Below, piece after piece: positions 47-32,411 of a DNA stretch of 45,051 nt; positions within the stretch are counted from its first letter, which is position 1, and each line of letters opens with the position of its first letter. Below the pieces are notes generated by a model. It did not search any database, had not been told where the DNA came from, and saw nothing but the letters and a program-made list of their open reading frames with translations. A program made the position numbers and the translations under genes. The DNA comes from Vectrevirus T145P2. The stretch lies in sequence record OZ035747.1; one strand, 5' to 3'.

Positions 47-329
47 ACATGCAGCTACAGAGGACGAGGTTGGCATTCTGCATGGTGCTATTACCAAAAT
101 CTTCAATAAGAAAGCACAGGCAATACTGGACACTATAGAAGAAGACCCTGATGCAGCATTACATTTAGTGTCTGGTAAGGATATTGGTGCGATGTGTAAG
201 TGGGTTCTTGATAACGGCATTACCGCCACACCTGCTGCACAGCAGGAAGAGTCCAAGTTATCTAAGCGCCTCAAGGCTATCCGAGAGGCATCCAGTGGCA
301 AGATTATTCAGTTTACAAAAGAGGAGTGA
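30..329 (+). CDS. terminase small subunit (T7 gp18-like), GTG start
   Basis: GGAGG at 21-25 then GTG at 30; 99 aa; position directly upstream of large terminase; loose resemblance to T7 gp18 as I recall it. Confidence 0.5.
   Translation: MSVHNKHAATEDEVGILHGAITKIFNKKAQAILDTIEEDPDAALHLVSGKDIGAMCKWVLDNGITATPAAQQEESKLSKRLKAIREASSGKIIQFTKEE
122..144 (+). promoter_or_regulatory. phage RNAP promoter-like site inside the small terminase gene
   Basis: AATACTGGACACTATAGAAGAAG; matches the genome consensus except at the upstream AT-rich positions. Confidence 0.5.
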
Positions 330-330
330 T

Positions 331-774
331 ATGCATAGATGGTGTGAATCTCAAGGTTATACCATCTTACCTTCTGGTGTCATCCTTTCAAAGGGTGGCA
401 CCCCTCTCAAACCATTCAAGGCGGGTAGGGGTTATTTAGCAGTTAAAATTAAAAATAAAGAAGGTAAATGGCGTAATGTCTATGTTCATCAATTAGTGGC
501 TTATAAGTATTTACCTAAAACTAATAATGAAGTAAACCACAAAGACGGCGATAAGCACAACAATGATGTTAGCAACTTGGAGTGGGTAACAAGAAGCGAG
601 AATAACTATTTAAAATGCAATGGAAATGATAGGAGTGCCTTAAATAGCTATTTAGCAAGATTAAAAGATTGCTTCTTGCAAGGTAAGGGTGTAGCAGAAA
701 CCGCTAGACTTACTGGTAAAAGTGAACCAAGAGTTTCTTCTCTCTTTAAGGAGTGGCGAAATGGCAAAGGCTAG
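331..774 (+). CDS. HNH homing endonuclease with C-terminal HTH-like region
   Basis: ATG 331 after GAGGAG; motif EVNHKDGDKHNNDVSNLEWVTRSEN typical of HNH_3 nucleases; gene visibly AT-rich relative to neighbours; overlaps large terminase start by 14 nt. Confidence 0.8.
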   Translation: MHRWCESQGYTILPSGVILSKGGTPLKPFKAGRGYLAVKIKNKEGKWRNVYVHQLVAYKYLPKTNNEVNHKDGDKHNNDVSNLEWVTRSENNYLKCNGNDRSALNSYLARLKDCFLQGKGVAETARLTGKSEPRVSSLFKEWRNGKG

Positions 775-2659
775 AGAATCACAGGCAGAGGCATTAAAGC
801 GGTGGGAAAACCTTAAAGAACTACAAGACACTTTTAAATATACAGCGGAAGGTTTGCTTCTCTTTGCAGATACAGTTATTCATAACTTAATTGCAGGCAA
901 CCCTCATCTGATTCGTATGCAGGCGGATATCTTGAAGTTCCTATTTTACGGACACAAGTACCGCCTCATCGAAGCGCCTCGTGGTATCGCTAAGACAACA
1001 CTATCAGCAATCTATACGGTATTCCGTATTATTCATGAACCGCATAAGCGTATCATGGTTGTGTCCCAAAACGCCAAGCGAGCAGAGGAAATCGCAGGTT
1101 GGGTAGTTAAAATCTTCCGTGGCTTAGACTTTCTTGAGTTTATGCTGCCGGATATCTACGCTGGGGACCGTGCATCCGTTAAGGCGTTTGAGATTCATTA
1201 CACCCTACGTGGTAGTGATAAGTCTCCTTCTGTATCCTGTTACTCAATCGAAGCAGGTATGCAGGGTGCTCGTGCTGATATTATTCTAGCGGATGACGTA
1301 GAGTCGATGCAGAATGCTCGTACGGCAGCGGGCCGTGCCTTGCTTGAGGAACTGACTAAGGAGTTTGAATCTATCAACCAGTTTGGGGATATCATTTACC
1401 TTGGTACACCTCAGAACGTAAACTCTATCTACAACAACCTACCTGCTCGTGGTTACTCTGTTCGTATCTGGACTGCGCGTTACCCTTCAGTAGAGCAAGA
1501 GCAATGTTATGGCGACTTCCTTGCACCTATGATTGTGCAGGATATGAAGGACAACCCAGCACTGCGCTCAGGGTACGGGTTGGATGGTAATAGTGGTGCA
1601 CCTTGTGCCCCTGAAATGTATGATGATGAAGTCCTGATTGAGAAGGAAATCTCTCAGGGTGCTGCTAAGTTCCAGCTTCAGTTCATGCTTAACACTCGCA
1701 TGATGGATGCTGACAGATACCCATTACGCCTGAACAATCTAATCTTCACCTCGTTTGGTACAGAGGAAGTCCCTGTGATGCCTACGTGGAGTAATGATTC
1801 CATAAACATCATTGGTGATGCACCTAAGTATGGTAACAAGCCTACGGATTTCATGTACAGACCTGTAGCTCGCCCATACGAATGGGGTGCTGTCTCCCGC
1901 AAGATTATGTATATTGACCCTGCGGGTGGCGGTAAGAATGGGGATGAGACGGGTGTGGCTATCGTATTCCTGCACGGCACATTCATTTACGTGTATCAGT
2001 GCTTCGGTGTGCCGGGTGGATACCGCGAATCGTCCCTGAATCGCATTGTGCAGGCCGCAAAGCAGGCGGGTGTTAAAGAGGTATTCATTGAGAAGAACTT
2101 TGGTCATGGCGCGTTTGAGGCGGTAATTAAGCCGTACTTTGAACGAGAGTGGCCTGTAACGCTGGAAGAGGATTACGCCACCGGACAGAAAGAGTTGCGT
2201 ATCATTGAGACGCTGGAGCCGCTCATGGCAGCTCATAGGCTTATCTTCAATACAGAGATGGTGAAGTCAGACTTTGAGTCGGTACAGCACTACCCGCTTG
2301 AACTACGCATGTCCTACAGTCTTTTCAATCAAATGTCGAACATAACGATTGAGAAGAACAGCCTCCGGCACGATGACCGCCTAGACGCCCTGTATGGCGC
2401 TATACGGCAATTAACTTCTCAGATAGACTATGACGAGGTTACACGGATTAATCGCCTCAGAGCGCAGGAGATGCGCGATTACATCCATGCTATGAACACA
2501 CCTCATCTACGCAGGGCAATGCTATATGGAGATTACGGTACTGAGCGAAGAGTGACCAACACTTCCGTAGCGATGCAGCAGCGAGTTTACGGGCAGAACT
2601 ACCGAAATAAATCGGCAAGCAGAAATACACTTTCTGCAAGGATTTCAAGGACTTATTAA
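761..2659 (+). CDS. terminase large subunit (T7 gp19-like)
   Basis: AAGGAG then ATG 761; 632 aa; ATPase region RGIAKTTL...ILADDVESM and nuclease region DPAGGGKNGDETGVAIV. Confidence 0.93.
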   Translation: MAKARESQAEALKRWENLKELQDTFKYTAEGLLLFADTVIHNLIAGNPHLIRMQADILKFLFYGHKYRLIEAPRGIAKTTLSAIYTVFRIIHEPHKRIMVVSQNAKRAEEIAGWVVKIFRGLDFLEFMLPDIYAGDRASVKAFEIHYTLRGSDKSPSVSCYSIEAGMQGARADIILADDVESMQNARTAAGRALLEELTKEFESINQFGDIIYLGTPQNVNSIYNNLPARGYSVRIWTARYPSVEQEQCYGDFLAPMIVQDMKDNPALRSGYGLDGNSGAPCAPEMYDDEVLIEKEISQGAAKFQLQFMLNTRMMDADRYPLRLNNLIFTSFGTEEVPVMPTWSNDSINIIGDAPKYGNKPTDFMYRPVARPYEWGAVSRKIMYIDPAGGGKNGDETGVAIVFLHGTFIYVYQCFGVPGGYRESSLNRIVQAAKQAGVKEVFIEKNFGHGAFEAVIKPYFEREWPVTLEEDYATGQKELRIIETLEPLMAAHRLIFNTEMVKSDFESVQHYPLELRMSYSLFNQMSNITIEKNSLRHDDRLDALYGAIRQLTSQIDYDEVTRINRLRAQEMRDYIHAMNTPHLRRAMLYGDYGTERRVTNTSVAMQQRVYGQNYRNKSASRNTLSARISRTY

Positions 2660-2680
2660 TTACTGGACACTATAGAAGGA
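2658..2680 (+). promoter_or_regulatory. phage RNAP promoter
   Basis: ATTACTGGACACTATAGAAGG immediately after terminase stop; followed by AT-rich leader with TAGGT repeats. Confidence 0.8.
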
Positions 2681-2819
2681 AAGCCCAGATAATAAGATAA
2701 ATAATAGGTAATATATAGGTTAACCTAGGTTATATAGGTATACCTTAGTATGGGTGTACTCCTGTACACCCTATTCCTTACTACCTTACTATATTTACAT
2801 AATAGGAGAGAGAGAGACA

Positions 2820-3098: not shown

Positions 3099-3116
3099 GA
3101 TAAGGAGGAAGATTAC

Positions 3117-4012: not shown

Positions 4013-4089
4013 GGTGCTTGAGGTGGTGGCAGGTCTTATCGGCCTGCTGCTTGCCGCTAAGAAGAAGAAGGAAGACAAGGAGGCACAAA

Positions 4090-4328: not shown

Positions 4329-4351
4329 ATTTACTGGACACTATAGAAGAG
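4329..4351 (+). promoter_or_regulatory. phage RNAP promoter upstream of tailspike genes
   Basis: ATTTACTGGACACTATAGAAGAGG, exact consensus. Confidence 0.85.
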
Positions 4352-4430
4352 GTAAGATAGCGCCGTTCTTTTGAACGGCCTATTACTAGCCAATCTTCAT
4401 AGGGAGGGTTGGGAAGTAATAGGAGGTTTA

Positions 4431-5870
4431 ATGGCTAATATTACCAAACCTGTCACAACTGGTATTATACATGAAGGAAGGCTGCTATCAGATTATCTAA
4501 AACAAGCATGGGATAACACCTTACACGCTGATAACTACTTTGTTAGTGTTAAAGACTTTGGCGCTAAGGGTGATGGCTCTGCTGATGATACTGCTGCATT
4601 CAAAGCTGCACTTGCTTCTGGTAAGAATGTATATATCCCTGTAGGTATTTATATAATTAGTGAGACTTTGTATTTTAAGAATCAGGTTATAAAAGGGGGC
4701 GGAATAGCACCTATTCCGAGTCTTGGTACAATCCTTGCAATCTCACACAGTGAGCCTGCATTGAAATATGATGTAAGTGCAGGTTACTCTATGGGTGGTT
4801 ATTTAGGTGGGTTCTTCATAGATTATGGAGAGAACAAACCAGATAACTATGCAGGCAGAAAAGGCATAGATCTAGGTGATGCCGACCAACAAGCATGGCC
4901 TTCTCAATTTATCATTGAGAACATCATTGTCCGTGGTGCATACTTTGGTTTGCATGATGAAACAGGAGCATTCCAATACTCAATGCGCAATGTGGTTGCT
5001 ATCAATTGCTGGGAGGGGTTCCGTAAGTTCACTGGAACTACAGTCCTTATGGATACATGCTATGCGCTTAATTGCTATCAAGCATATAGACTGGCTAATG
5101 TTTATAATATGACAATGAATAACTGCGCCATGGATGGATGTAATGATATCCAAGGTTTACAGGCATTTGATATTACAAACTGCAAAGGTCTTGTGATAAA
5201 TGGCATGTATAGTGAGAATTGTGAGATCCATCATAGCGGTAATGCTTCTATATTTATTCATGGAGATTCTACAGTAACAATCAACGGTTATACCTTACAC
5301 TCGCATAATGTCGTTGTTGATCCAGCATCTGGAAGTGAAGAAGCATACTTTCTTAGAGCGCACGACAGCTCTAGGGTCAATGTAGATGGAATCTTCTTCG
5401 GTGAGAACCTTAAATCTACTAGTATCTTCACCTACCCAATTATGGCCTCTGGTGAGTCTAGAATTAAGCTAGGAACTACAGCACTTAAGGCATGGGTCGG
5501 TGCTAAGGGTGGTGCATCTATGGCTGCTGTTGAAGATAGTCTCATTGAATATGACAATACCGTATTTAACCCATCACTTACTGTAGGTTGGTGCAGTAAT
5601 AATGGTGTTGTAGCTAAAGGGACACTAGTTGTAAACACAACATTAGAACCTAATGCAGATTTAAATGCAGGAACTATACAATTAGTTGGTGACTATAAAC
5701 CAAATAAAGGTGATGTTCTTACATATGGTTCTACTTTCGATGTTCAATCATGTGCTATTATTCTGAAGCCACAAGGTGATAATAGTTGTAATGTTTACAT
5801 TAAAAACCTAAGTGCAGGTAGTAGTGTTACACTTAACGGAATATTGCACGTACAGGCAATTCGTAGGTAA
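4431..5870 (+). CDS. tailspike 1: beta-helix polysaccharide depolymerase/lyase-like protein (possibly K5-type lyase)
   Basis: AGGAGG then ATG 4431; 479 aa; KDFGAKGDGSADDTAAFKAALASGKNVYIP start of pectate-lyase-like beta-helix; repeated N-x-C turns; lacks T7 gp17-type N-terminal domain. Confidence 0.75.
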   Translation: MANITKPVTTGIIHEGRLLSDYLKQAWDNTLHADNYFVSVKDFGAKGDGSADDTAAFKAALASGKNVYIPVGIYIISETLYFKNQVIKGGGIAPIPSLGTILAISHSEPALKYDVSAGYSMGGYLGGFFIDYGENKPDNYAGRKGIDLGDADQQAWPSQFIIENIIVRGAYFGLHDETGAFQYSMRNVVAINCWEGFRKFTGTTVLMDTCYALNCYQAYRLANVYNMTMNNCAMDGCNDIQGLQAFDITNCKGLVINGMYSENCEIHHSGNASIFIHGDSTVTINGYTLHSHNVVVDPASGSEEAYFLRAHDSSRVNVDGIFFGENLKSTSIFTYPIMASGESRIKLGTTALKAWVGAKGGASMAAVEDSLIEYDNTVFNPSLTVGWCSNNGVVAKGTLVVNTTLEPNADLNAGTIQLVGDYKPNKGDVLTYGSTFDVQSCAIILKPQGDNSCNVYIKNLSAGSSVTLNGILHVQAIRR

Positions 5871-5899: not shown

Positions 5900-5953
5900 G
5901 CGCAACTTTTCTTAAAGGTTATCATGATGGTAGCCTTTCAGAAAGGAGGTTAC

Positions 5954-8389
5954 ATGATTCAAAGACTAGGTTCTTCATTAGTTAAATTCAAGAGTAAAAT
6001 AGCAGGTGCAATCTGGCGTAACTTGGATGACAAGCTCACCGAGGTTGTATCGCTTAAAGATTTTGGAGCCAAAGGTGATGGTAAGACAAACGACCAAGAT
6101 GCAGTAAATGCAGCGATGGCTTCAGGTAAGAGAATTGACGGTGCTGGTGCTACTTACAAAGTATCATCTTTACCTGATATGGAGCGATTCTATAACACCC
6201 GCTTCGTATGGGAACGTTTAGCAGGTCAACCTCTTTACTATGTGAGTAAAGGTTTTATCAATGGTGAACTATATAAAATCACGGATAACCCTTATTACAA
6301 TGCTTGGCCTCAAGACAAAGCGTTTGTATATGAGAACGTGATATATGCACCTTACATGGGTAGTGACCGTCATGGTGTTAGTCGTCTGCATGTATCATGG
6401 GTTAAGTCTGGTGACGATGGTCAAACATGGTCTACTCCAGAGTGGTTAACTGATCTGCATCCAGATTACCCTACAGTGAACTATCATTGTATGAGCATGG
6501 GTGTATGTCGCAACCGTCTGTTTGCCATGATTGAAACACGTACTTTAGCCAATAACGCACTAACCAATTGTGCATTGTGGGATCGTCCTATGTCTCGTAG
6601 TCTGCACCTTACTGGTGGTATCACTAAGGCTGCAAATCAGCAATATGCAACAATACATGTACCAGATCACGGATTATTCGTGGGCGATTTTGTTAACTTC
6701 TCTAATTCTGCGGTAACAGGTGTATCAGGTGATATGACTGTTGCAACGGTAATAGATAAGGACAACTTCACGGTTCTTACACCTAACCAGCAGACTTCAG
6801 ATTTGAATAACGCTGGAAAGAGTTGGCACATGGGTACTTCTTTCCATAAGTCTCCATGGCGTAAGACAGATCTTGGTCTAATCCCTAGTGTCACAGAGGT
6901 GCATAGCTTTGCTACTATTGATAACAATGGCTTTGTTATGGGATATCATCAAGGTGATGTAGCTCCACGAGAAGTTGGTCTTTTCTACTTCCCTGATGCT
7001 TTCAATAGCCCATCTAATTATGTTCGTCGTCAGATACCATCTGAGTATGAACCAGATGCGTCAGAGCCATGCATCAAGTACTATGACGGTGTATTATACC
7101 TTATCACTCGTGGCACTCGTGGTGACAGACTTGGAAGCTCTTTGCATCGTAGTAGAGATATAGGTCAGACTTGGGAGTCACTGAGATTTCCACATAATGT
7201 TCATCATACTACCTTACCTTTTGCTAAAGTAGGAGATGACCTTATTATGTTTGGTTCAGAACGTGCAGAAAATGAATGGGAAGCAGGTGCACCAGATGAC
7301 CGTTACAGGGCATCTTATCCTCGTACCTTCTATGCACGATTGAATGTAAACAATTGGAATGCAGATGATATTGAATGGGTTAACATCACAGACCAAATCT
7401 ATCAAGGGGACATTGTGAACTCTAGTGTAGGTGTAGGTTCTGTTGTAGTTAAAGACAGCTACATTTACTATATCTTTGGTGGTGAAAATCATTTCAACCC
7501 AATGACTTATGGTGACAACAAAAATAAAGACCCATTTAAAGGTCATGGACACCCTACTGATATATACTGCTATAAGATGCAGATTGCAAATGACAATCGT
7601 GTATCTCGTAAGTTTACATATGGTGCAACTCCTGGTCAAGCTATACCTACTTTCATGGGTACTGATGGGGTACGAAATATCCCTGCACCTTTGTATTTCT
7701 CAGATAACATTGTTACAGAGGATACTAAAGTTGGACACTTAACAATTAAAGCAAGCACAAGTTCCAATATACGATCTGAAGCGCAGATGGAAGGTGAATA
7801 TGGCTTTATTGGCAAGTCTGTTCCAAAGGATAACCCAACTGGTCAACGTTTGATTATTTGTGGTGGAGAAGAGACTTCGTCCTCTTCAGGTGCACAGATA
7901 ACTTTGCACGGCTCTAATTCAAGTAATGCTAATCGTATCACTTATAACGGAAATGAGCACCTATTCCAAGGTGCACCAATCATGCCTGCTGTAGATAACC
8001 AGTTTGCTGCTGGTGGGCCTAGTAACCGATTCACTACCATCTACCTAGGTAGTGACCCTGTTACAACTTCAGATGCTGAACACAAGTACGGCATCTCTAG
8101 TATTAATACCAAGGTGTTAAAGGCTTGGGGTAGAGTTGGTTTTAAACAGTATGGTTTGAATAGTGAAGCAGAGAGGAATCTTGATAGCATACACTTCGGT
8201 GTCTTGGCTCAGGATATTGTAGCTGCTTTTGAAGCTGAAGGATTGGATGCCATTAAGTATGGAATTGTGTCCTTCGAAGAAGGTAGGTACGGTGTGAGAT
8301 ATAGTGAAGTTCTAATCCTAGAGGCTGCCTACACTCGCCATCGTCTTGATAAATTAGAGGAGATGTACGCCGCTAATAAAATCAGTTAA
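5954..8389 (+). CDS. tailspike 2: endo-N-acetylneuraminidase (endosialidase) with C-terminal intramolecular chaperone domain
   Basis: AAAGGAGG then ATG 5954; 811 aa; C-terminal SDAEHKYGISS...LDSIHFGVLAQD region resembles the self-cleaving chaperone domain of K1-phage endosialidases (from memory). Confidence 0.85.
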   Translation: MIQRLGSSLVKFKSKIAGAIWRNLDDKLTEVVSLKDFGAKGDGKTNDQDAVNAAMASGKRIDGAGATYKVSSLPDMERFYNTRFVWERLAGQPLYYVSKGFINGELYKITDNPYYNAWPQDKAFVYENVIYAPYMGSDRHGVSRLHVSWVKSGDDGQTWSTPEWLTDLHPDYPTVNYHCMSMGVCRNRLFAMIETRTLANNALTNCALWDRPMSRSLHLTGGITKAANQQYATIHVPDHGLFVGDFVNFSNSAVTGVSGDMTVATVIDKDNFTVLTPNQQTSDLNNAGKSWHMGTSFHKSPWRKTDLGLIPSVTEVHSFATIDNNGFVMGYHQGDVAPREVGLFYFPDAFNSPSNYVRRQIPSEYEPDASEPCIKYYDGVLYLITRGTRGDRLGSSLHRSRDIGQTWESLRFPHNVHHTTLPFAKVGDDLIMFGSERAENEWEAGAPDDRYRASYPRTFYARLNVNNWNADDIEWVNITDQIYQGDIVNSSVGVGSVVVKDSYIYYIFGGENHFNPMTYGDNKNKDPFKGHGHPTDIYCYKMQIANDNRVSRKFTYGATPGQAIPTFMGTDGVRNIPAPLYFSDNIVTEDTKVGHLTIKASTSSNIRSEAQMEGEYGFIGKSVPKDNPTGQRLIICGGEETSSSSGAQITLHGSNSSNANRITYNGNEHLFQGAPIMPAVDNQFAAGGPSNRFTTIYLGSDPVTTSDAEHKYGISSINTKVLKAWGRVGFKQYGLNSEAERNLDSIHFGVLAQDIVAAFEAEGLDAIKYGIVSFEEGRYGVRYSEVLILEAAYTRHRLDKLEEMYAANKIS

Positions 8390-11384: not shown

Positions 11385-11498
11385 ATGGAAAGGCAATATA
11401 ACTTCATATTTTCAGACGGTGTAACCCTGAAATGTTCCTTACGATTTGCGCAGATTCGTGAGGAAGTGCTAGGTACTACATACAAACTATTTAGCTGA
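11385..11498 (+). CDS. small early protein (37 aa)
   Basis: GAGGA then ATG 11385. Confidence 0.35.
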   Translation: MERQYNFIFSDGVTLKCSLRFAQIREEVLGTTYKLFS

Positions 11499-11512
11499 CA
11501 CTATAAGAGAAG
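11489..11512 (+). promoter_or_regulatory. variant phage RNAP promoter-like site
   Basis: ATTTAGCTGACACTATAAGAGAAG; SP6-like upstream half, altered initiation region. Confidence 0.4.
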
Positions 11513-12711: not shown

Positions 12712-15339
12712 ATGCAAGACCTACACGCTATTCAACTTCAACTTGAAGAAGAAATGTTTAACGGCGGTATCCGTCGCTTTGAAGCTGACCAACAACGCCA
12801 GATTGCATCCGGTAATGAATCAGACACGGCATGGAATCGACGCTTATTGTCCGAACTAATCGCACCTATGGCGGAAGGTATTCAGGCTTACAAGGAAGAA
12901 TACGAAGGCAAGAGAGGTCGTGCACCCCGTGCATTAGCTTTCATTAACTGCGTAGGAAACGAAGTGGCAGCATATATCACCATGAAAATCGTTATGGATA
13001 TGCTGAATACAGACGTTACCTTACAAGCTATCGCTATGAATGTAGCAGACCGCATCGAGGACCAAGTACGTTTTAGCAAGCTGGAAGGTCACGCAGCTAA
13101 GTATTTTGAGAAAGTGAAGAAGTCGCTTAAGGCTAGCAAGACTAAATCTTATCGTCATGCGCACAACGTAGCGGTAGTAGCTGAGAAATCTGTTGCTGAC
13201 CGTGACGCGGATTTCTCCCGTTGGGAGGCATGGCCTAAAGACACCTTGCTGCAAATCGGTATGACCTTGCTCGAAATATTGGAGAATAGTGTATTCTTCA
13301 ATGGTCAACCTGTCTTCCTTCGTACCTTGCGCACTAACGGCGGAAAGCATGGTGTTTACTATTTACAGACCAGTGAACATGTTGGCGAGTGGATAACTGC
13401 ATTTAAGGAACATGTAGCTCAGCTCAGCCCTGCCTATGCACCTTGCGTTATACCTCCCCGCCCTTGGGTATCACCTTTTAACGGTGGGTTTCATACTGAG
13501 AAAGTAGCAAGCCGTATTCGTCTGGTAAAAGGCAATCGTGAGCACGTCCGCAAGCTGACCAAAAAGCAAATGCCAGCCGTTTATAAGGCTGTTAACGCTT
13601 TGCAGGCAACTAAGTGGCAGGTTAATAAAGAGGTTTTACAGGTTGTGGAGGACGTTATACGTCTAGACCTCGGCTATGGTGTGCCTTCCTTTAAACCACT
13701 CATCGACCGTGAGAACAAGCCAGCTAATCCAGTGCCGTTAGAGTTCCAGCACCTGCGAGGCCGTGAACTTAAAGAGATGCTAACGCCGGAACAATGGCAA
13801 GCCTTCATCAACTGGAAAGGCGAATGTACCAAGCTGTATACCGCTGAAACTAAGCGCGGCAGCAAATCGGCGGCGACCGTCCGCATGGTTGGGCAGGCAC
13901 GTAAATACAGCCAGTTTGACGCCATCTACTTCGTGTATGCACTGGACAGCCGCAGCCGCGTCTACGCGCAATCTAGCACGCTCTCTCCGCAATCAAACGA
14001 CTTAGGCAAGGCATTGCTCCGTTTTACCGAAGGGCAGCGCCTCGATAGCGCTGAGGCGCTTAAATGGTTTTTGGTGAACGGGGCTAATAACTGGGGTTGG
14101 GATAAGAAGACTTTTGACGTGCGCACCGCTAACGTGCTGGATAGTGAATTTCAAGACATGTGCCGCGACATTGCAGCGGATCCGCTTACCTTCACTCAAT
14201 GGGTGAATGCCGACTCCCCTTACGGCTTCCTTGCTTGGTGCTTTGAATATGCGCGTTATCTGGATGCACTGGATGAAGGCACGCAAGACCAATTCATGAC
14301 GCACCTCCCCGTCCATCAAGATGGTAGTTGTTCTGGTATCCAGCACTACAGTGCTATGCTACGCGATGCAGTAGGTGCGAAAGCAGTAAACCTTAAGCCC
14401 TCTGATTCTCCTCAAGATATTTATGGTGCCGTTGCGCAGGTAGTAATTCAGAAGAATTATGCATACATGAATGCAGAGGATGCGGAAACCTTCACTTCTG
14501 GCAGCGTGACTTTAACAGGTGCGGAACTGCGTAGCATGGCTAGTGCGTGGGATATGATAGGAATCACTCGCGGCCTGACCAAAAAGCCCGTAATGACACT
14601 ACCTTACGGCAGCACACGTCTAACCTGCCGTGAGTCAGTGATTGATTATATCGTTGATTTGGAAGAAAAAGAGGCCCAACGGGCTATTGCGGAAGGGCGT
14701 ACCGCCAATCCTGTACATCCTTTTGATAATGACCGCAAAGACAGCCTGACACCTAGCGCAGCTTATAACTATATGACAGCTTTAATCTGGCCTTCTATTT
14801 CGGAAGTGGTTAAAGCTCCTATAGTGGCAATGAAAATGATTCGTCAGCTTGCACGTTTCGCAGCTAAAAGAAACGAAGGCTTAGAATATCCCTTACCAAC
14901 TGGCTTCATCTTGCAACAAAAGATAATGGCTACCGATATGCTCCGCGTATCCACTTGCTTGATGGGTGAAATCAAGATGAGTCTCCAGATTGAAACAGAT
15001 GTAGTTGATGAAACGGCAATGATGGGTGCGGCTGCTCCTAACTTCGTCCATGGTCACGATGCTAGCCACCTGATTCTGACTGTATGTGACCTAGTGGATA
15101 AAGGTATTACATCCATTGCAGTCATCCATGATTCTTTCGGTACTCATGCAGGACGTACCGCAGACCTGCGGGATAGCTTAAGGGAAGAAATGGTTAAGAT
15201 GTATCAAAACCATAATGCCCTGCAAAACCTGCTAGATGTGCACGAAGAGCGTTGGTTAGTAGACACCGGAATCCAAGTACCAGAGCAAGGAGAGTTTGAC
15301 CTTAACGAAATCTTAGTTTCAGACTATTGTTTCGCATAA
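12712..15339 (+). CDS. single-subunit DNA-directed RNA polymerase (T7 gp1-like)
   Basis: 875 aa; collinear with T7 RNAP including PFCFLAFCFEY-like [27 protein letters not shown] and IHDSFGTHA motifs. Confidence 0.97.
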
Positions 15340-15347
15340 TATTAATA

Positions 15348-15378
15348 GGCCATTCCTTAGGGAGTGGCCTTTTTCTTT
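15348..15378 (+). terminator. intrinsic terminator after the RNAP gene (candidate early terminator)
   Basis: GGCCATTCC-TTAG-GGAGTGGCC 9-bp stem followed by TTTTTCTTT. Confidence 0.65.
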
Positions 15379-15431: not shown

Positions 15432-15454
15432 ATTTACCGGACACTATAGGATAG
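15432..15454 (+). promoter_or_regulatory. phage RNAP promoter (CCGG subclass)
   Basis: ATTTACCGGACACTATAGGATAG. Confidence 0.7.
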
Positions 15455-15626: not shown

Positions 15627-15649
15627 ATTTACCGGACAGTATAGATAAG
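15627..15649 (+). promoter_or_regulatory. phage RNAP promoter, variant core
   Basis: ATTTACCGGACAGTATAGATAAG. Confidence 0.55.
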
Positions 15650-15807: not shown

Positions 15808-17796
15808 ATGGCTATTATTCAGAATGTACCGTGTCCCGCCTGTCAAAAGAATGGACATGATATTACTGGCAACCATCTTATGATATTTGAGGATGGCGCT
15901 GGTTACTGTAACCGTGGTCACTTCCATGATAACGGCAAGCCTTATTACCATAAGCCAGAGGGTGGCATCGAGATAACCGAATTACCTATTACTGGCAATA
16001 TCAAATATACACCTTCTCAGTTTAAAGAGATGGAGAAGGAAGGGAAGATTAGCGACCCTAAGCTACGCGCCATCGCACTTGGTGGTATGCGTATGAAAGA
16101 CCGTTGGGAGGTTATGAATGAGCAAGAAAGGGCAGACCAAGAAGCAGAGTGGAAACTTGATGTTGAATGGTTCCTCACGCTTAAGCGTAAGAATCTTGTT
16201 TCCCGACACATTCGCGGCGACATTTGCGCATTGTATGATGTACGTGTCGGACACGATGAAGATGGTAGAGTCTCACGGCATTACTATCCACGCTTCGAGA
16301 AAGGTGAGCTAGTAGGCGCCAAGTGTCGCACATTACCTAAAGACTTTAAGTTTGGTCATTTAGGTAAACTCTTTGGTATGCAAGATCTTTTCGGTATGAA
16401 TACTTTGTCTCACGTGTTAGACAAGGGAAGACGAAAGGATTGCTTGCTTATTGTGGGCGGCGAACTGGATGCACTAGCAGCACAGCAGATGCTCCTTGAT
16501 TCTGCCAAGGGTACTAAGTGGGAAGGCCAGCCTTACCATGTATGGTCTGTCAATAAAGGTGAGTCTTGCCTTGAAGAGATAGTGCAGAACCGTGAGCATA
16601 TCGCCCAATTCAAGAAGATTATATGGGGTTTTGATGGAGATGAGGTGGGGCAGAAGCAGAATCAGCAAGCGGCTCGCCTGTTTCCTGGCAAATCCTATAT
16701 CCTTGAATACCCTTCTGGTTGCAAAGATGCTAACAAGGCATTGATGGCTGGCAAGGCTAAAGAGTTTGTTGATGCTTGGTTTAATGCCAAGTCATCTGAT
16801 GAAGTCTTTGGTAGCCAGATTAAATCTATCGCATCTCAAAGGGATAAGCTCAAGGCTGCACGTCCAGAGCAAGGGTTATCATGGCCTTGGCCTAAGCTGA
16901 ACAAGGTAACGCTAGGTATTCGTAAGAACCAGCTTATCATTGTAGGTGCAGGCTCTGGTGTAGGTAAGACTGAGTTCCTCCGCGAAGTGGTTAAACATCT
17001 TATTGAAGAACACGGTGAATCTGTAGGCATCATTTCTACAGAAGACCCGATGGTCAAGGTGTCCCGTGCTTTTATCGGCAAGTGGATTGATAAGCGTATT
17101 GAGTTACCGCCAACCAACGACCCGAAAGAAGACGGATACCGTGAGGTGTTCGACTACACCGAGGAAGAAGCTAACGCTGCCATTGATTATGTGGCTGATA
17201 CAGGAAAGCTATTTGTGGCTGACCTAGAAGGCGACTATTCTATGGAGAAGGTAGAGCAAACTTGCCTAGAGTTTGAGGCTATGGGCATTTCTAATATCAT
17301 CATTGATAACTTAACGGGGATTAAATTAGATGAGCGTGCTTTTGGTGGGAAGGTTGGTGCACTTGATGAATGCGTCAAACGAATTGGTACTATCAAAGAC
17401 CGACATGCGGTTACGATTTTCCTTGTCTCTCACCTTACACGTCCTCCGGCAAACCGTACCCAACACGAAGAAGGTGGCGAAGTTATCCTTTCTGACTTCC
17501 GAGGCTCAGGCGCTATCGGATTCTGGGCATCTTACGCCTTGGGGATTGAGCGTAATACAAGAGCTGAAACGCTTGATGAAAGGACTACCACGTACATCTC
17601 TTGTGTCAAAGACCGCGACCAAGGTATCTACACAGGAACCAAAGTCATGCTCAAGGGTGACATTCAGACCGGGCGTTTGAGAGAACCACAAGCTAGAACA
17701 AGGTCGTTTGATACAGGCGAAGCAAGGCAACAAGAAGTACCGGATTTACCGGACACTATAGAAGAGACAACCTTTGACGATGAACAGGAGTTTTAA
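15808..17796 (+). CDS. DNA primase/helicase (T7 gp4-like)
   Basis: 662 aa; N-terminal Cys4 zinc motif CPACQKNGHD...YCNRGH; Walker A GAGSGVGKTEF; acidic C-terminus ending DDEQEF. Confidence 0.95.
   Translation: MAIIQNVPCPACQKNGHDITGNHLMIFEDGAGYCNRGHFHDNGKPYYHKPEGGIEITELPITGNIKYTPSQFKEMEKEGKISDPKLRAIALGGMRMKDRWEVMNEQERADQEAEWKLDVEWFLTLKRKNLVSRHIRGDICALYDVRVGHDEDGRVSRHYYPRFEKGELVGAKCRTLPKDFKFGHLGKLFGMQDLFGMNTLSHVLDKGRRKDCLLIVGGELDALAAQQMLLDSAKGTKWEGQPYHVWSVNKGESCLEEIVQNREHIAQFKKIIWGFDGDEVGQKQNQQAARLFPGKSYILEYPSGCKDANKALMAGKAKEFVDAWFNAKSSDEVFGSQIKSIASQRDKLKAARPEQGLSWPWPKLNKVTLGIRKNQLIIVGAGSGVGKTEFLREVVKHLIEEHGESVGIISTEDPMVKVSRAFIGKWIDKRIELPPTNDPKEDGYREVFDYTEEEANAAIDYVADTGKLFVADLEGDYSMEKVEQTCLEFEAMGISNIIIDNLTGIKLDERAFGGKVGALDECVKRIGTIKDRHAVTIFLVSHLTRPPANRTQHEEGGEVILSDFRGSGAIGFWASYALGIERNTRAETLDERTTTYISCVKDRDQGIYTGTKVMLKGDIQTGRLREPQARTRSFDTGEARQQEVPDLPDTIEETTFDDEQEF
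17744..17766 (+). promoter_or_regulatory. phage RNAP promoter inside 3-prime end of the primase-helicase gene
   Basis: ATTTACCGGACACTATAGAAGAG. Confidence 0.7.
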
Positions 17797-18029: not shown

Positions 18030-18752
18030 ATGTATAACTTAGTGTTGAATGTAGGTGACTTTGTACGCAACATCAAGAAAGATTCAAGTCGCTATCTTTG
18101 CCGTGGTGTTGTAACCTTTGTAGGTGAGAACCTGTATCATGTAGAATATCACAGTGGTGTTAAGCAGTATTACCACAAGAGGACAGCACATAAATATCTT
18201 GAAAAGATTGTAGAGGTAAACAATCAATGTAAGTGCATACATGATGAGGTTTGCGATAAGTGCAAACGTCAGGCAATTAAAGTCTTTACCTTTGCTCAAC
18301 GCTATGGTTCTATGTATGGTGCTGGTCACAAGACCGTTGCAGAAGCAGCTTGGAAGACATTGCAGTTTGAGAGTTCAAATGGACGACGCACCACACTCAA
18401 GAAAGAGCGTCGCAATGTAATCACTGGTAAGACTCAAAGTGAGATGATTAAGCAATGTGGCACTGCATTAGGTGTTACACAGTTTAATACTCGTGCATTG
18501 GGTAAATCCACAGGACAAGCTATGGTAAAGATTGGCGAAGCCATGATGCATCCAAATGTACCTGTGCGAATCATGGATGTTGACCATGCAATCACAGAAC
18601 ATGGTACACCACGGCGTGTAGCTAATAATCATTTTGCCGACACTATAGAAGGTATTATCCGTAAGCAAGAGTTGAAAGGTCTTCACATCTTGAATGGTGA
18701 AGAGTTACTGTACCTCCCTATCGTTACTGAAGAAACCTACGTGAATATCTAA
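18030..18752 (+). CDS. hypothetical protein with Cys cluster (240 aa)
   Basis: GGAGG then ATG 18030; CKCIHDEVCDKCKRQ zinc-binding-like cluster; no family recognised. Confidence 0.7.
   Translation: MYNLVLNVGDFVRNIKKDSSRYLCRGVVTFVGENLYHVEYHSGVKQYYHKRTAHKYLEKIVEVNNQCKCIHDEVCDKCKRQAIKVFTFAQRYGSMYGAGHKTVAEAAWKTLQFESSNGRRTTLKKERRNVITGKTQSEMIKQCGTALGVTQFNTRALGKSTGQAMVKIGEAMMHPNVPVRIMDVDHAITEHGTPRRVANNHFADTIEGIIRKQELKGLHILNGEELLYLPIVTEETYVNI
18631..18653 (+). promoter_or_regulatory. variant phage RNAP promoter-like site inside the 18030..18752 gene
   Basis: ATTTTGCCGACACTATAGAAGGT. Confidence 0.45.
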
Positions 18753-22206: not shown

Positions 22207-22228
22207 ATTTACTGGACACTATAGAAGG
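22207..22228 (+). promoter_or_regulatory. phage RNAP promoter
   Basis: ATTTACTGGACACTATAGAAGG followed by AT-rich TAGGT-repeat leader. Confidence 0.85.
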
Positions 22229-22293
22229 AAATCCTAGGTAATCTAGGTTTATAAGGTAGTATAGGTAATTAAGTAAATATAGGAGATATAAAT

Positions 22294-22671
22294 ATGTCTA
22301 TGGTAACTACTCTGGTATTCGTGGCTCAATACTTTCGTGGTCTTGCTAATAAGTTCAAGTCCAAGGCTATCAAAGCTATTGAGGCTCGCATCGAAGCAGT
22401 ACAGGCAGAGCAAGTTAAAGTTGAAGAGCATCGTAGTTCTCAAATGATTGACTGTCATAACCGCTACTATGCATCTCGTGATGAACTAAATGCACGTCAA
22501 GTCAAAGAGGTAGAAGATATGCTGGCACGTCACCAGCAAGAGCGTGACAGCCTGAAAGCTGAATTTGAAGAGAACAAGGCATCAATTGCTCTTGTAAATC
22601 AAGCTGCATCTGACAGCCTGAAGAAAGAGATTGTTATGCTGGAAATAGAACTGGACAACTTGACTAAATAA
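22294..22671 (+). CDS. hypothetical coiled-coil protein (125 aa)
   Basis: TAGGAGA then ATG 22294; hydrophobic N-terminus then heptad-rich sequence. Confidence 0.6.
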   Translation: MSMVTTLVFVAQYFRGLANKFKSKAIKAIEARIEAVQAEQVKVEEHRSSQMIDCHNRYYASRDELNARQVKEVEDMLARHQQERDSLKAEFEENKASIALVNQAASDSLKKEIVMLEIELDNLTK

Positions 22672-22676: not shown

Positions 22677-22976
22677 ATGATGGAAGAAGTGATTCAAGCT
22701 AAACATGTAGGTATCATCTTTCGTGATTTAGAGCAGCGTAAAGTTGCAGGTCACACTCGTCTGGCTAAAGAAGACGATACAGCAATCACTACTGTGGAAC
22801 AAGCAGATGCATATCGTGGTCCAGAGTTTACTCAAGGTGAAACTTGTCATCAATTGAGCCTTTCACTTTGTGACACTATGGCTAGTGTAAATGTACAAGA
22901 GGTTGAAGATGGTGAATGTGTTAGTTATGTCTACCCTCTCGATACTATTGCACGTATTAAGGTAGTTCATAAGTAA
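22677..22976 (+). CDS. hypothetical acidic protein (99 aa)
   Basis: ORF track; ATGATG start. Confidence 0.55.
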   Translation: MMEEVIQAKHVGIIFRDLEQRKVAGHTRLAKEDDTAITTVEQADAYRGPEFTQGETCHQLSLSLCDTMASVNVQEVEDGECVSYVYPLDTIARIKVVHK

Positions 22977-22997
22977 TTACTGGACACTATAGAACAA
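22975..22997 (+). promoter_or_regulatory. phage RNAP promoter
   Basis: AATTACTGGACACTATAGAACAA overlapping the preceding stop codon. Confidence 0.7.
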
Positions 22998-24120: not shown

Positions 24121-24143
24121 ATTTACTGGACACTATAGAAGAG
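24121..24143 (+). promoter_or_regulatory. phage RNAP promoter
   Basis: ATTTACTGGACACTATAGAAGAG. Confidence 0.85.
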
Positions 24144-24193: not shown

Positions 24194-24565
24194 ATGTTCA
24201 AGATTGAAACTATCGTAAACCGTGTTGTTAAAGGTGCTGCTCTGGTATCCGTTGAGTCTTTCATTATCGTCGATGAAGCTGATCAACTGGTAGCTGGTAC
24301 TAAGGCTTACGATACCCGTGAAGAAGCTCAGGCTAAGATTGACAGCATGGGTAACTTCGCTGCTGGTCTGGAGTTCGCTCGTGCTTGCTTCCCTGAGCAG
24401 GCTGACAAAGCCCAGATCGGGAAGGCTAACATCGTAGCTGAATATCTGGATTGGATTGCTGCTGGTAAACCAGTGAAAGAAGTTAAAGCTACTGAAGAAG
24501 CTGAAGCTCCTGCAGTAGAAGTGTCTGCACCGGAAGCTCCGGTTAGCGAAGAGGAAGAGTTTTGA
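24194..24565 (+). CDS. small acidic protein with C-terminal acidic tail ending in Phe (123 aa), own promoter and terminator
   Basis: ORF track; tail APEAPVSEEEEF; flanked by promoter 24121 and terminator 24625. Confidence 0.7.
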   Translation: MFKIETIVNRVVKGAALVSVESFIIVDEADQLVAGTKAYDTREEAQAKIDSMGNFAAGLEFARACFPEQADKAQIGKANIVAEYLDWIAAGKPVKEVKATEEAEAPAVEVSAPEAPVSEEEEF

Positions 24566-24624
24566 TAATAGCAGGTGTAGCCTCTGTTAGTCCTAGTTGA
24601 CTATCACGCTCACCTCATCTAATG

Positions 24625-24657
24625 CCCTGTCTGCCTTAGTGTAGGCAGGGTCTTTTG
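24625..24657 (+). terminator. intrinsic terminator
   Basis: CCCTGTCTGC / GTAGGCAGGG 10-bp stem (with G-U pairs) followed by TCTTTTG; sequence-related to terminator at 33679. Confidence 0.7.
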
Positions 24658-26312: not shown

Positions 26313-27312
26313 GCTTCGCAGCTTGTACAAAGACTCCGAGGTACTTGATGCAATCGAGCAAGCTACCGACGAGAAAGGTAATGTTAACTACAACGAGATG
26401 GCACGGGTATTATCGTGTCACCCTGTGGGTAAGAAGATTACCCGCCAGTTGGCTCGATACTGGCATGGTCAATTCAAGAAGACCAAGAAGAATGGTGATT
26501 ACTACCAGACTCTTCTGCAAGAGGATAAGCGTATCAAAGAAGAGCGTAAGCTCAGGACTCCTGACCGCTACGAGGATTTGGCTATTGTACCACTGCCTGA
26601 CTCGCCTCATCGAAGTGTACTGGTAATCCCTGACACTCATGCACCTTACGAGCACCCAGATACCTTAGAGTTTCTGGCAGCGGTGGCAGCACGTTACCGT
26701 CCAGACACTGTAGTTCATCTGGGTGATGAGGCAGATAAACATGCCTTATCGTTCCACGATTCAGACCCCAATCTGGATAGTGCTGGCATGGAGTTAGAGA
26801 AGGCCCGTGTCTTTATGCATAAATTACACAAGATGTTTCCTGTGATGCGCCTGTGTCATTCTAATCACGGCTCTATGCACTTCCGTAAGGCAAGCGCTAA
26901 GGGTATCCCTGTGCAATACTTGCGTACCTATCGAGAAGTCTTCTTTCCGCATGGGGGTGGCGACCAGTGGGATTGGCAGCATACACACGTTCTTGAGTTG
27001 CCGAATGGTGAACAGGTTGCATTTAAGCATCAACCAGCAGGCTCAGTCTTAGCAGATGCAGCGCATGAGCGCATGAACTTAGTGTGCGGTCACTTGCATG
27101 GTAAGATGTCGGTGGAGTATGCACGTAACACACATGAACAGTATTGGGCTGTGCAGGGCGGCTGTTTGATTGATGAGTCATCTCGTGCATTTGCCTATGG
27201 TCGTGAGTCCAAATACAAGCCAGCATTAGGTTGTGTGGTTATTCTGGAGGGTGTGCCGCACATTGTCCCGATGCAGACCAATAGTGACAATCGCTGGATT
27301 GGTAAGATTTAG
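26272..27312 (+). CDS. calcineurin-like metallophosphoesterase (start uncertain: TTG 26272, ATG 26278 or TTG 26305 with strong SD)
   Basis: VIPDTHAPYEHPD ... HLGDEADKH ... GHLHGK metal-binding motifs. Confidence 0.8.
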   Translation: MLMQERRRRLKLGKLRSLYKDSEVLDAIEQATDEKGNVNYNEMARVLSCHPVGKKITRQLARYWHGQFKKTKKNGDYYQTLLQEDKRIKEERKLRTPDRYEDLAIVPLPDSPHRSVLVIPDTHAPYEHPDTLEFLAAVAARYRPDTVVHLGDEADKHALSFHDSDPNLDSAGMELEKARVFMHKLHKMFPVMRLCHSNHGSMHFRKASAKGIPVQYLRTYREVFFPHGGGDQWDWQHTHVLELPNGEQVAFKHQPAGSVLADAAHERMNLVCGHLHGKMSVEYARNTHEQYWAVQGGCLIDESSRAFAYGRESKYKPALGCVVILEGVPHIVPMQTNSDNRWIGKI

Positions 27313-27329
27313 TTGACACTATAGAACAA
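27307..27329 (+). promoter_or_regulatory. phage RNAP promoter, SP6-like subclass
   Basis: ATTTAGTTGACACTATAGAACAA, one mismatch from the SP6 promoter ATTTAGGTGACACTATAGAA. Confidence 0.75.
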
Positions 27330-29100: not shown

Positions 29101-29233
29101 AGGAATGGAAATGCTTGAGATGATTCTCAAGCCCTCTTCTCCTAAGGTGACTAAGACTCATGAAGAGTTAATCGTTGATGAAGTTAAGCGTTACATCATG
29201 GATTGTGTCAGAGCACAACTGGTGGTCCAATGA
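29063..29233 (+). CDS. hypothetical protein (start uncertain)
   Basis: Track ORF 29051..29233 uses TTG; ATG candidates at 29063 and 29105. Confidence 0.35.
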   Translation: MVQTKKKPTISFEGMEMLEMILKPSSPKVTKTHEELIVDEVKRYIMDCVRAQLVVQ

Positions 29234-29691
29234 TACGTCCAGCTTCCTTCCTAGATATTCCTGAGATTATAAACCTTGGGAATAAATATGTGGAAGAGGA
29301 AGTCAAGGTTGTAGCCCACCACTCAGCCTCATGGAATGCAGAACAAAGTGCACATAACCTTTGTGCATCTCTTAGTAGAGAAGATTTATTCCTATGGGTT
29401 GCTGTAGATGAAGGGCAGATTGTAGGGTTCCTGTGGGCTGGCTATCACGAGTTGGCCCCTTGGACACCTGTAAGAGTTGCCTCTGACATTCTCTTTTATA
29501 TTATACCAGAGAGGCGAGGAACACTACTTGGTATGCGTCTCATCAAAGCCCTAAAGCAATGGGCTAGTGATAATGAATGCTCTGAGGTTCGCCTGTCTAT
29601 CGCCTCTGGTATTAATGAAGAACGTGTCGGACGTATGTATAAGCGACTTGGCTTTGAACCGTTTGGCACTGTGTATAACCTGAAGTTCTAA
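29230..29691 (+). CDS. GNAT-family N-acetyltransferase
   Basis: ATG 29230; IVGFLWAG ... RRGTLLGMRLIKAL ... RMYKRLGFEP acetyl-CoA-binding core. Confidence 0.7.
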   Translation: MIRPASFLDIPEIINLGNKYVEEEVKVVAHHSASWNAEQSAHNLCASLSREDLFLWVAVDEGQIVGFLWAGYHELAPWTPVRVASDILFYIIPERRGTLLGMRLIKALKQWASDNECSEVRLSIASGINEERVGRMYKRLGFEPFGTVYNLKF

Positions 29692-29700
29692 GGAGATAAC

Positions 29701-29910
29701 ATGAGTGTTGTAAAGAAAGCATTTAAGGCTATCGGTCTTGCTCAAGATGCACCACGTATTGAAGCCAAAGTCCCAGCACAGCAGCTTGAGCGTAAGCCTG
29801 AGACTGAAGCTGAAGATATTCAAATTGGTGCAGGTGGTGATGATGCGACTGCATCTGCAAAAGGTAAGCGCGGCCTTGTCCGTCCGGTAGCTTCTAGCTT
29901 GAAGGTGTAA
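29701..29910 (+). CDS. small virion-associated protein, possibly gp6.7-like
   Basis: 69 aa; position immediately before portal. Confidence 0.4.
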   Translation: MSVVKKAFKAIGLAQDAPRIEAKVPAQQLERKPETEAEDIQIGAGGDDATASAKGKRGLVRPVASSLKV

Positions 29911-29911
29911 T

Positions 29912-31462: not shown

Positions 31463-32382
31463 TGTCTTTCTCATTTACTGAACCGTCAACCACTCACCCT
31501 ACTGCTGAAGAGGGTACGGTAGAAACCAAGGAGGTAACAACTGATGCTGCTACTACTGATGCTCCTGCTGACGCTGGCACTGCTGTACAAGATGACAATG
31601 CTGGTGCACAACCTACTGAAGACACCGGAGGAGAAGCTTCTGGACAGCCTTCAGAAGAAGGAGACAATGGCGGAGAGAATGGTGAATCTAAGCCAGATGA
31701 TACCGCGACCGACACTGAGGAAGTGCAGTACTTCTTCGGAGAATATGAAGTAACAGTAGATATACCACAGGATGTTACTGATAGCCTTAAAGAGAAAGGT
31801 ATTGATGCTAAGCAGGTTGCCAAGGAACTCTATGCCAAAGATGGCAAGTTTGAATTGTCCGATGCAACCAAGCAGAAGCTGTATGATGCCTTTGGCAAGT
31901 TTGCAGTAGACGCCTACTTGTCTGGCCTGAAAGCGCAGAATGAAGCCTTCTTCCTGAAGGAAGCCAATGCTGCAAAGGAACTTGAAGCAGCTAACACTCA
32001 GCGCTTCTCTGATGTTTCTAAGGAAGTTGGTGGCGAAGAAGGTTGGTCCCGTCTTGAGGCGTGGGCGCTGGAAGCGCTGTCCGATGACGAACTCACGGCA
32101 TTCAATGCGGTGATGGAGTCTGGCAACCAATACCTCCAGCAATATGCTGTGCGTGAACTAGAAAGCCGCCGTAAAGCTGCACAGGGTGATGACAAGCCAA
32201 ACTTGATTGAGCCATCTGCACCTGCTGCCGCATCTGAGGATAATGGACCCCTGTCTCGCGATCAGTATCTCCGTGAGATGATGACGCTGGGTTCCCGCTT
32301 CGGTACAGACAAGAAAGCTGCTGCTGAGTATCAGGCTAAGCTGGATGCTCGCCGCCGTGCTGGCATGGCTCGCGGTATCTAA
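31462..32382 (+). CDS. capsid assembly scaffolding protein (gp9-like)
   Basis: 306 aa; acidic N-terminus; start overlaps portal stop (TAATG). Confidence 0.85.
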   Translation: MSFSFTEPSTTHPTAEEGTVETKEVTTDAATTDAPADAGTAVQDDNAGAQPTEDTGGEASGQPSEEGDNGGENGESKPDDTATDTEEVQYFFGEYEVTVDIPQDVTDSLKEKGIDAKQVAKELYAKDGKFELSDATKQKLYDAFGKFAVDAYLSGLKAQNEAFFLKEANAAKELEAANTQRFSDVSKEVGGEEGWSRLEAWALEALSDDELTAFNAVMESGNQYLQQYAVRELESRRKAAQGDDKPNLIEPSAPAAASEDNGPLSRDQYLREMMTLGSRFGTDKKAAAEYQAKLDARRRAGMARGI

Positions 32383-32388
32383 TTCAGT

Positions 32389-32411
32389 ATTTACTGGACA
32401 CTATAGAAGGG
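32389..32411 (+). promoter_or_regulatory. phage RNAP promoter upstream of the capsid gene
   Basis: ATTTACTGGACACTATAGAAGGG. Confidence 0.85.

Follow-up and report, generated by a model that had tools for sequence, protein, structure and literature searches.

The 45,051-nucleotide (nt) stretch of DNA analyzed here, from sequence record OZ035747.1 and hereafter called the window, encodes a single-subunit RNA polymerase and carries 13 copies of a short element resembling the promoters of bacteriophage SP6. With 94-98% identity to the coliphages T145P2, ULINTec4, K1E and K1-5, the window is, judged by its sequence, a K1E/K1-5-like coliphage of the genus Vectrevirus, subfamily Molineuxvirinae. The assembly is circularly permuted, and the junction of positions 1 and 45051 falls within the holin gene. 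Homology to the ends of the K1E and Mt1B1_P10 genomes puts the physical genome ends at approximately 8736 and 9001 in window coordinates; judged by the same homology, the window carries a single copy of a direct terminal repeat of about 266 base pairs (bp; 8736-9001). In true genome order the 13 sites, each named by the first window position of its unit, are 11489, 15432, 15627, 17744, 18631, 22207, 22975, 24121, 27307, 32389, 121, 2658 and 4329. Their numbering follows that of SP6, where +1 is the G of TATAG and the unit is the 23 bp from -17 to +6.

A preliminary description of this DNA held that thirteen sites share GACACTATAG(A/G). All thirteen sites are real, and the string is exact in 11 of them, with copies beginning at 129, 2666, 4337, 15440, 17752, 18639, 22215, 22983, 24129, 27315 and 32397. 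The cores at 11497 (GACACTATAAG, A at +1) and 15635 (GACAGTATAGA, G at -5) each contain one mismatch. There are exactly 11 exact copies in the window, all on the plus strand, compared with 0.04 expected from dinucleotide-preserving shuffles, none of which reached 11. The shorter core CACTATAG (-7 to +1) is likewise exact in 11 of the 13 sites, with a single mismatch in 11489 and in 15627. When both strands were scored with a weight matrix derived from the 13 sites over -17 to +6, the sites received 25.9-36.5 bits and the next best position on either strand 10.1 bits. The family has exactly 13 members in the window and is complete and cleanly separated. Near-matches on the minus strand, for example one of 8.6 bits at 14836 within the polymerase gene, were rejected. 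The span first given for the family, 122-32411, fits its first and last sites (121-143 and 32389-32411).

The window consensus, ATTTACTGGACACTATAGAAGAG, differs from that of SP6, ATTTAGGTGACACTATAGAAGAG, only at -12, -11 and -10, in agreement with the original proposal of a phage promoter family that departs from SP6 at the specificity positions. Seven sites read ACTGG at -13 to -9 (121, 2658, 4329, 22207, 22975, 24121 and 32389), one more than the six previously counted; their description as mostly late or strong is loose as regards "late", three of the seven being in the DNA-metabolism region. The three ACCGG sites (15432, 15627 and 17744) and the single AGCTG (11489) and AGTTG (27307) sites are as first reported. 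The remaining site, 18631, reads ATTTTGCCGACAC and is TGCCG in register, the TTGCC given earlier being shifted by one base. At -11 the window sites have T in eight cases and C in five.

All 13 sites lie on the plus strand, as do all long open reading frames (ORFs). Six are intergenic, four overlap the preceding gene at its end or stop codon, and three (121, 17744 and 18631) are intragenic; most stand at the boundaries of gene clusters. We regard the elements as promoters because of this strand bias and placement, their orthology with characterized SP6 promoters, and the presence of a cognate polymerase gene in the window. They very probably constitute the full promoter set of the phage's own single-subunit, K1E/K1-5-like RNA polymerase, and it is plausible that the deviant sites are conserved weaker promoters. 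That the repeats arose by chance, or belong to a repeat family unrelated to transcription, is so improbable as to be negligible: 11 exact copies against 0.04 expected, the strict strand bias, the gene-boundary placement, the SP6 orthology and the polymerase gene all speak against it, and with no supporting point found, chance origin was rejected. The pattern is real but ordinary, since the set is the one already known for K1E and K1-5, in which the promoters for gp7 occupy the same 13 sites with the same variants at orthologous positions. Phage promoters are annotated in none of the GenBank records of K1E, K1-5, SP6 (two records), KAW1A4500, ULINTec4, ACG-C91, NTNC80A and Mt1B1_P10. Table 1 lists the promoters and associated features.

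Table 1. Promoters (in true genome order), polymerase gene, terminators and hairpin copies in the window
Feature	Window coordinates	Strand	Sequence and properties	Context
Promoter 1	11489..11511	+	ATTTAGCTGACACTATAAGAGAA; G at -12, C at -11, T at -10, A at +1; 26.8 bits	Overlaps end of gp4 homologue; gp5, gp6 and RNA polymerase gene downstream
Promoter 2	15432..15454	+	ATTTACCGGACACTATAGGATAG; ACCGG, start GGA	First of tandem pair, just past polymerase-gene terminator
Promoter 3	15627..15649	+	ATTTACCGGACAGTATAGATAAG; ACCGG, G at -5, start GAT	Second of tandem pair; gp8 and primase/helicase gene downstream
Promoter 4	17744..17766	+	ATTTACCGGACACTATAGAAGAG; ACCGG, rest consensus	Within 3' end of primase/helicase gene (15808..17796)
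Promoter 5	18631..18653	+	ATTTTGCCGACACTATAGAAGGT; most deviant upstream half; 25.9 bits, lowest of 13	Within 3' part of gp10 homologue (ORF end 18752)
Promoter 6	22207..22229	+	ATTTACTGGACACTATAGAAGGA; consensus class	Past DNA polymerase region, ahead of gp15 (22294..22671)
Promoter 7	22975..22997	+	AATTACTGGACACTATAGAACAA	Over gp15.5 stop codon (end 22976), ahead of gp16
Promoter 8	24121..24143	+	ATTTACTGGACACTATAGAAGAG; full consensus; 36.5 bits	Ahead of gp18 (24194..24565)
Promoter 9	27307..27329	+	ATTTAGTTGACACTATAGAACAA; AGTTG	Over gp22 stop codon (end 27312), ahead of nucleotide kinase and ligase genes
Promoter 10	32389..32411	+	ATTTACTGGACACTATAGAAGGG	Ahead of major capsid gene (32462..33670)
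Promoter 11	121..143	+	CAATACTGGACACTATAGAAGAA; poor -17 to -14 box; 29.0 bits	Inside small-terminase gene (30..329)
Promoter 12	2658..2680	+	AATTACTGGACACTATAGAAGGA	Over large-terminase stop codon (gene end 2659), ahead of gp41-45 lysis-region genes
Promoter 13	4329..4351	+	ATTTACTGGACACTATAGAAGAG; full consensus; 36.5 bits	Ahead of two tail-spike genes (ORFs 4371..5870 and 5924..8389)
RNA polymerase gene	12712..15339	+	Single-subunit enzyme, 875 amino acids; 99.9% identical to K1E gp7	
Specificity loop codons	14911..15015	+	Residues 734-768, by alignment to T7	
Terminator	15347..15370	+	Strong hairpin and T-run; 10 pairs, 6 G-C; tail TTTTTCTTT	Directly 3' of RNA polymerase gene
Terminator-like hairpin	24624..24651	+	11 pairs	After gp18
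Terminator-like hairpin	33678..33704	+	11 pairs	Directly 3' of major capsid gene; terminator annotated there in KAW1A4500
GTCTCACATGTGAGAC copy	9324-9339	+		
GTCTCACATGTGAGAC copy	15414-15429	+		
GTCTCACATGTGAGAC copy	15606-15621	+		
GTCTCACATGTGAGAC copy	16407-16422	+		
GTCTCACATGTGAGAC copy	17975-17990	+		
GTCTCACATGTGAGAC copy	24090-24105	+		
GTCTCACATGTGAGAC copy	40576-40591	+		

The same 13 sites, nearly all with the same variant, are present in K1E, K1-5, KAW1A4500, T145P2, ULINTec4, ACG-C91 and Mt1B1_P10, and with some changes in NTNC80A. K1E differs from the window at the strain level only; at site 2658, for example, K1E and also ACG-C91 have ACCGG and the window ACTGG. Site 22975 has CTAG in K1-5 and the SP6-type AATTAGGTG in NTNC80A. 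Across nine Vectrevirus genomes, 21 of 299 promoter columns are variable (7%) versus 326 of 1383 flanking columns (24%; p = 3e-12, with 105 flanking columns per site). Neither 11489, whose flanks vary in 23 of 106 columns (22%), nor 22207 is variable in any of its 23 columns.

The SP6 genome has 12 promoters (PMC11880802), and 12 of the 13 window sites lie at their positions, nine by BLAST alignment and three (11489, 18631 and 22975) by shared gene order. Six window promoters also align directly to promoters of the Proteus phage PM93 (Acadevirus), and the capsid promoter 32389 is orthologous to SP6 22413 and PM93 24004. SP6 is itself off-consensus at six of the orthologous sites, namely 2104 (TGTG, A at +1), 6118 (AGGG), 6287 (CGTG, core mismatch), 9112 (CGTG), 17428 (AGTG) and 37773 (GGGG). 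The A in place of G at +1 (TATAAGAG) ahead of the polymerase gene was observed at window position 11506, at SP6 position 2121 and in all nine Vectrevirus genomes. This atypical start base at the polymerase-gene promoter is old and conserved, and from such a promoter the phage polymerase would be able to transcribe the gene that encodes it. To our knowledge, T7 has no phage promoter upstream of its polymerase gene, and the window differs from T7 in having one.

Site 121, the promoter that the window has in addition to the SP6 set, is found in all nine Vectrevirus genomes and is not at the aligned position in SP6 or PM93; the aligned codons read AAV in SP6, DVI in PM93 and DTI in the window. Over its -13 to +3 segment, third codon positions are variable in 1 of 6 cases versus 48 of 92 elsewhere in the small-terminase gene, and 19 consecutive consensus bases are retained inside a coding region where synonymous variation is high. 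The pattern offers modest evidence that selection acts on the DNA sequence as such.

The window polymerase differs from K1E gp7 solely by I802V, shares 85% identity with SP6 polymerase and approximately 32% with that of T7, and matches T7 RNA polymerase structures with E ~1e-110. Residues R746, N748, R756 and Q758 of the T7 specificity loop make base-specific hydrogen bonds to the promoter (PMC11880802); they align with R745, S747, K755 and S757 of the window enzyme. The SP6 loop differs from that of the window by Q735E, D742E, S747R, E753D, I760V, V764I and T768A, of which only S747R is non-conservative. Ser747, Lys755 and Ser757 are common to the window, K1E, K1-5, ACG-C91, NTNC80A and Mt1B1_P10, the SP6 residues being Arg, Lys and Ser. 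K1E and SP6 have been placed in separate clusters, which are defined by five promoter positions jointly with the residues at T7 748, 756 and 758; the rules worked out for other T7-like enzymes hold for neither (PMC11880802). The window polymerase has the residue combination of the "K1E cluster", in which the K1E polymerase-promoter pair is catalogued (PMC11880802). The K1E polymerase and the K1E capsid-gene promoter also drive expression in the C3P3 system (PMC6412113). The Protein Data Bank holds no structure of an SP6-type polymerase, so residue-base contacts are placed here by alignment to T7.

In its 23-bp layout, its orientation and its consensus at -17 to -13 and -9 to +6, the window set is identical to that of SP6. 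It differs in having CTG where SP6 has GGT at -12 to -10, and in having T or C at -11 where G is invariant in SP6-type sets. Ser747 in the window against Arg in SP6, at the equivalent of T7 N748, fits this change at -12 to -10, and may be its counterpart in the protein. The AT-rich recognition loop is almost unchanged between the two polymerases, which fits the ATTTA common to both promoter sets. By homology with T7, this loop would bind ATTTA at -17 to -13, the specificity loop would read roughly -12 to -7, TATA at -4 to -1 would be melted, and RNA would start at the G of TATAG. PM93 has the set AATTA(A/G)AGACCACTATAGAAG, which has its -6 to +6 core in common with the window; its specificity segment at -12 to -7, AAGACC or GAGACC, is of a third type. 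The specificity segment of T7 differs as well.

The preliminary description concluded that the cognate polymerase probably recognizes ACTGG rather than AGGTG; an exclusive reading of this kind is too strong. NTNC80A (OP018999) has a specificity loop identical to that of the window, yet three AGGTG promoters occur there among ACTGG ones, at 14869 (AATTAGGTG, the 22975 orthologue), 20145 (ATTTAGGTG, the 27307 orthologue) and 32196 (an extra site, CATTAGGTG). The AATTAGGTG site lies in a segment closer to SP6 than to the window, which suggests that it arrived by recombination and that the genome is mosaic. For the metagenomic enzyme "No. 2049", the promoter list of the source genome is nearly identical to that of the window, with an AGCTG/TATAA site, ACCGG sites, a TTTTGCCG site, a GCAATACTGG site and, in addition, two AGGTG sites (PMC13029058 and its supplement). 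The 27307 orthologue reads ATTTAGGTG in this genome, as in NTNC80A, and ATTTAAGTG in SP6. Relative to T7, the signal of "No. 2049" was 3.5% on the SP6 promoter, 2% on its own ACTGG consensus, 10.6% on ACTGG with changes at +2 and +5, and 0.18% on a PM93-type promoter; this K1E-like enzyme also initiated in vitro from TATTTACTGGACACTATAG... (PMC13029058). On the strength of the NTNC80A promoters and the "No. 2049" signals, the enzyme family seems to accept both the ACTGG and the AGGTG forms.

The IMG/VR database was also scanned with TANNNGACACTATAGAA; the matches listed were mostly unrelated single ones, and the usable ones came down to a few SP6-like or K1E-like fragments. Five SP6-like fragments among the matches listed and SP6 itself together give 26 promoters, all 26 with G at -11; -12 and -10 vary. 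An enzyme with Arg at the loop position would accordingly need G at -11, and one with Ser would read -12 to -10 loosely and accept both CTG and GGT. It is possible, at slightly less than an even chance, that the K1E-type Ser polymerase is a generalist at -12 to -10 that uses ACTGG as well as SP6-type AGGTG promoters; SP6 polymerase is predicted to fail on ACTGG, given that no SP6-type set departs from G at -11.

Several points weigh against these interpretations. The nine Vectrevirus genomes are close relatives, and the constancy of the sites is partly shared descent. PM93 has Arg at the 747 equivalent (with Met at the 749 and Arg at the 755 equivalents) and yet A at -11, so that a simple rule in which Arg reads G at -11 fails across the subfamily. 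The SP6 and ACTGG constructs used with "No. 2049" also differ at +6 (GAAGAG versus GAAGAA), and all the signals are low (PMC13029058). Finally, we infer the likeness of "No. 2049" to the window polymerase from the promoter list and a stated identity of >84% to SP6.

Whether the promoters differ in strength is a separate matter from which of them are recognized. Along the genome, the five promoters that come first are without exception non-CTGG, and all but one of the eight that follow are CTGG; the chance of this exact five/eight split is 6/1287, for a split picked after inspection of the data. SP6 polymerase performs best with GAA at +1 to +3 (PMC7429497), and only 11489, 15432 and 15627 are without it. 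Graded promoter strength is plausible, because each deviant form is conserved at its own site, the leftmost five promoters are non-consensus, the orthologous SP6 sites show a like tendency, and the start that is optimal for SP6 polymerase is missing from just those three early sites. The non-consensus promoters, clustered in the early and replication part and often with poorer start bases, would then be conserved weaker promoters. T7 offers a possible likeness in its class II promoters, which are weaker than those of class III (PMC11617373): in both phages early and DNA-metabolism promoters tend to deviate from the consensus and structural-gene promoters to match it. The window differs in that its DNA-metabolism region contains three consensus-type promoters (22207, 22975 and 24121), with the deviant AGTTG site 27307 after them. 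In T7, the polymerase-binding lysozyme gp3.5 shuts off weak promoters late in infection. The endolysin of the window's relatives is annotated as an M15 peptidase, not a T7-type amidase.

The subclasses at -13 to -9 might instead be neutral variation and shared ancestry under a tolerant polymerase, with each site keeping its inherited form. The exchange of ACTGG and ACCGG at 2658 between close strains is in keeping with this, as are the CTAG of K1-5 and the GGTG of NTNC80A at 22975, the use of the SP6 promoter by a K1E-like enzyme about as well as its own consensus, and the fact that a palindrome-plus-promoter unit duplicated in tandem (spacing 192-195 nt) accounts for two of the three ACCGG sites, 15432 and 15627. 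We consider this explanation somewhat unlikely, given that deviant sites vary less than their flanks (none of 23 columns at 11489), that SP6 is off-consensus at six of the same sites (2104, 6118, 6287, 9112, 17428 and 37773), and that upstream deviation coincides with non-optimal start bases at 11489, 15432 and 15627. The bases at +2 and +5 shift output approximately five-fold (PMC13029058). Because of this effect, the exchange at 2658 and the duplicated ACCGG pair, the -13 to -9 class alone does not define strength, and if strength is graded it depends on the whole 23 bp.

The terminator behind the polymerase gene divides the early unit from the tandem promoters, and KAW1A4500 has a terminator annotated at the same place. 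Likenesses to T7 are the tandem promoters that immediately follow the polymerase gene and the terminator behind the capsid gene. The 13 rightward promoters would work together with the three strong terminators. Expression timing and level might be set mainly by promoter position, terminators and RNA processing, with the sequence class of the promoter a minor factor. This would accord with the co-orientation and ordering of all promoters along the genome, with the strong terminators after the polymerase gene, gp18 and the capsid gene, and with a conserved hairpin family between genes and beside promoters; in T7, left-to-right genome entry coupled to transcription is established. Such control leaves unexplained why particular sites keep non-consensus forms in both lineages, and it is compatible with graded strength; as a substitute for graded strength, we think it improbable to about the same degree as neutral variation.

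Less probable still is that some variant sites serve other roles, the 15432/15627 pair in priming replication and 11489 or 121 as barely active relics. The pair directly follows the polymerase gene, at the same position as T7 phi1.1A/1.1B, the primary origin (phi1.1A is annotated 26 nt after gene 1), and the 178 nt between its members are unusually structured (z = -3.0) and repeat-rich; 11489 is without G at +1, and 121 has a poor AT box. No origin mapping was found for this phage group, and both relic candidates bear marks of function: 11489 is invariant in nine genomes and its SP6 counterpart also has A at +1, and 121 keeps its 19 consecutive consensus bases despite high synonymous variation. 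The interval between the tandem promoters (15449-15626) is in itself purine-rich and then pyrimidine-rich, has several repeats, both inverted and direct, and gives a better fold than shuffled sequences. It lies at the position of both the T7 phi1.1A/B primary origin and the R1.1 RNase III site, and could be an origin or a processing site.

A second repeat family consists of the 16-nt hairpin or palindrome GTCTCACATGTGAGAC, with seven copies at no more than two mismatches against 0.17 expected. Six copies are intergenic and the one at 16407 is inside the primase/helicase gene. The copy at 15414-15429 precedes promoter 15432, ending 2 nt upstream of it, and other copies end 5 nt upstream of 15627 and 15 nt upstream of 24121. 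The copies at 17975 and 40576 have a longer stem of 13 bp (-19.7 and -17.6 kcal/mol) with a U-rich tail behind it. Six Vectrevirus relatives carry exact copies. The SP6 equivalent, GTCTAACATGTTGGAC, occurs three times and pairs only as plus-strand RNA, via a G-U pair; in Erwinia phage S2 the form is GTCTCACACGTGAGAC. The conserved stem and variable loop suggest an RNA hairpin with a part in processing, pausing, termination or stability. A search of Rfam returned no known RNA family.

Downstream of promoter 2658, about 77 nt from its start and before gp41, lies a stable 8-bp G+C-rich hairpin, GGGTGTAC...GTACACCC (2752-2771; z = -3.6), which is annotated in KAW1A4500 as a putative terminator. 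A terminator so near a promoter would be odd, and the hairpin may be a processing or stability element. Pattern scans for sigma-70 promoters and terminators were overall not above chance in window 1-20000, and in 20001-40000 there was an excess for terminator-like sites only; from the terminator scans, only the strongest individual hairpins were used. Near the left genome end, two sigma-70-like sites on the plus strand (9407-9435 and 10149-10177) have identical hexamers, TTGACA and TACATT, separated by 17 nt, and probably act as early promoters for the host polymerase. An extra gene of about 147 codons (331-774) lies between the small-terminase gene and the large-terminase gene (~764..2659). 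K1-5 is without it, and Mt1B1_P10 has a 444-nt hypothetical gene in the same place; in K1E, the large-terminase gene is instead split by a homing endonuclease.

As standard transcription signals of a well-studied phage group, the 13 promoters have little importance beyond correct annotation, and the K1E polymerase and promoter are already in biotechnological use. What is mildly new is the evidence for tolerance of SP6-type promoters among K1E-type enzymes and for a mixture of both kinds in natural genomes. If true, such promiscuity would explain how the consensus of a whole promoter set can shift, and how a mosaic phage like NTNC80A survives when recombination with SP6-like phages has left it with mixed promoters. 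One Arg-to-Ser difference in the specificity loop may have made a strict enzyme tolerant, which would bear on the orthogonality of K1E and SP6 expression systems and on the co-evolution of phage promoter sets with their polymerase.

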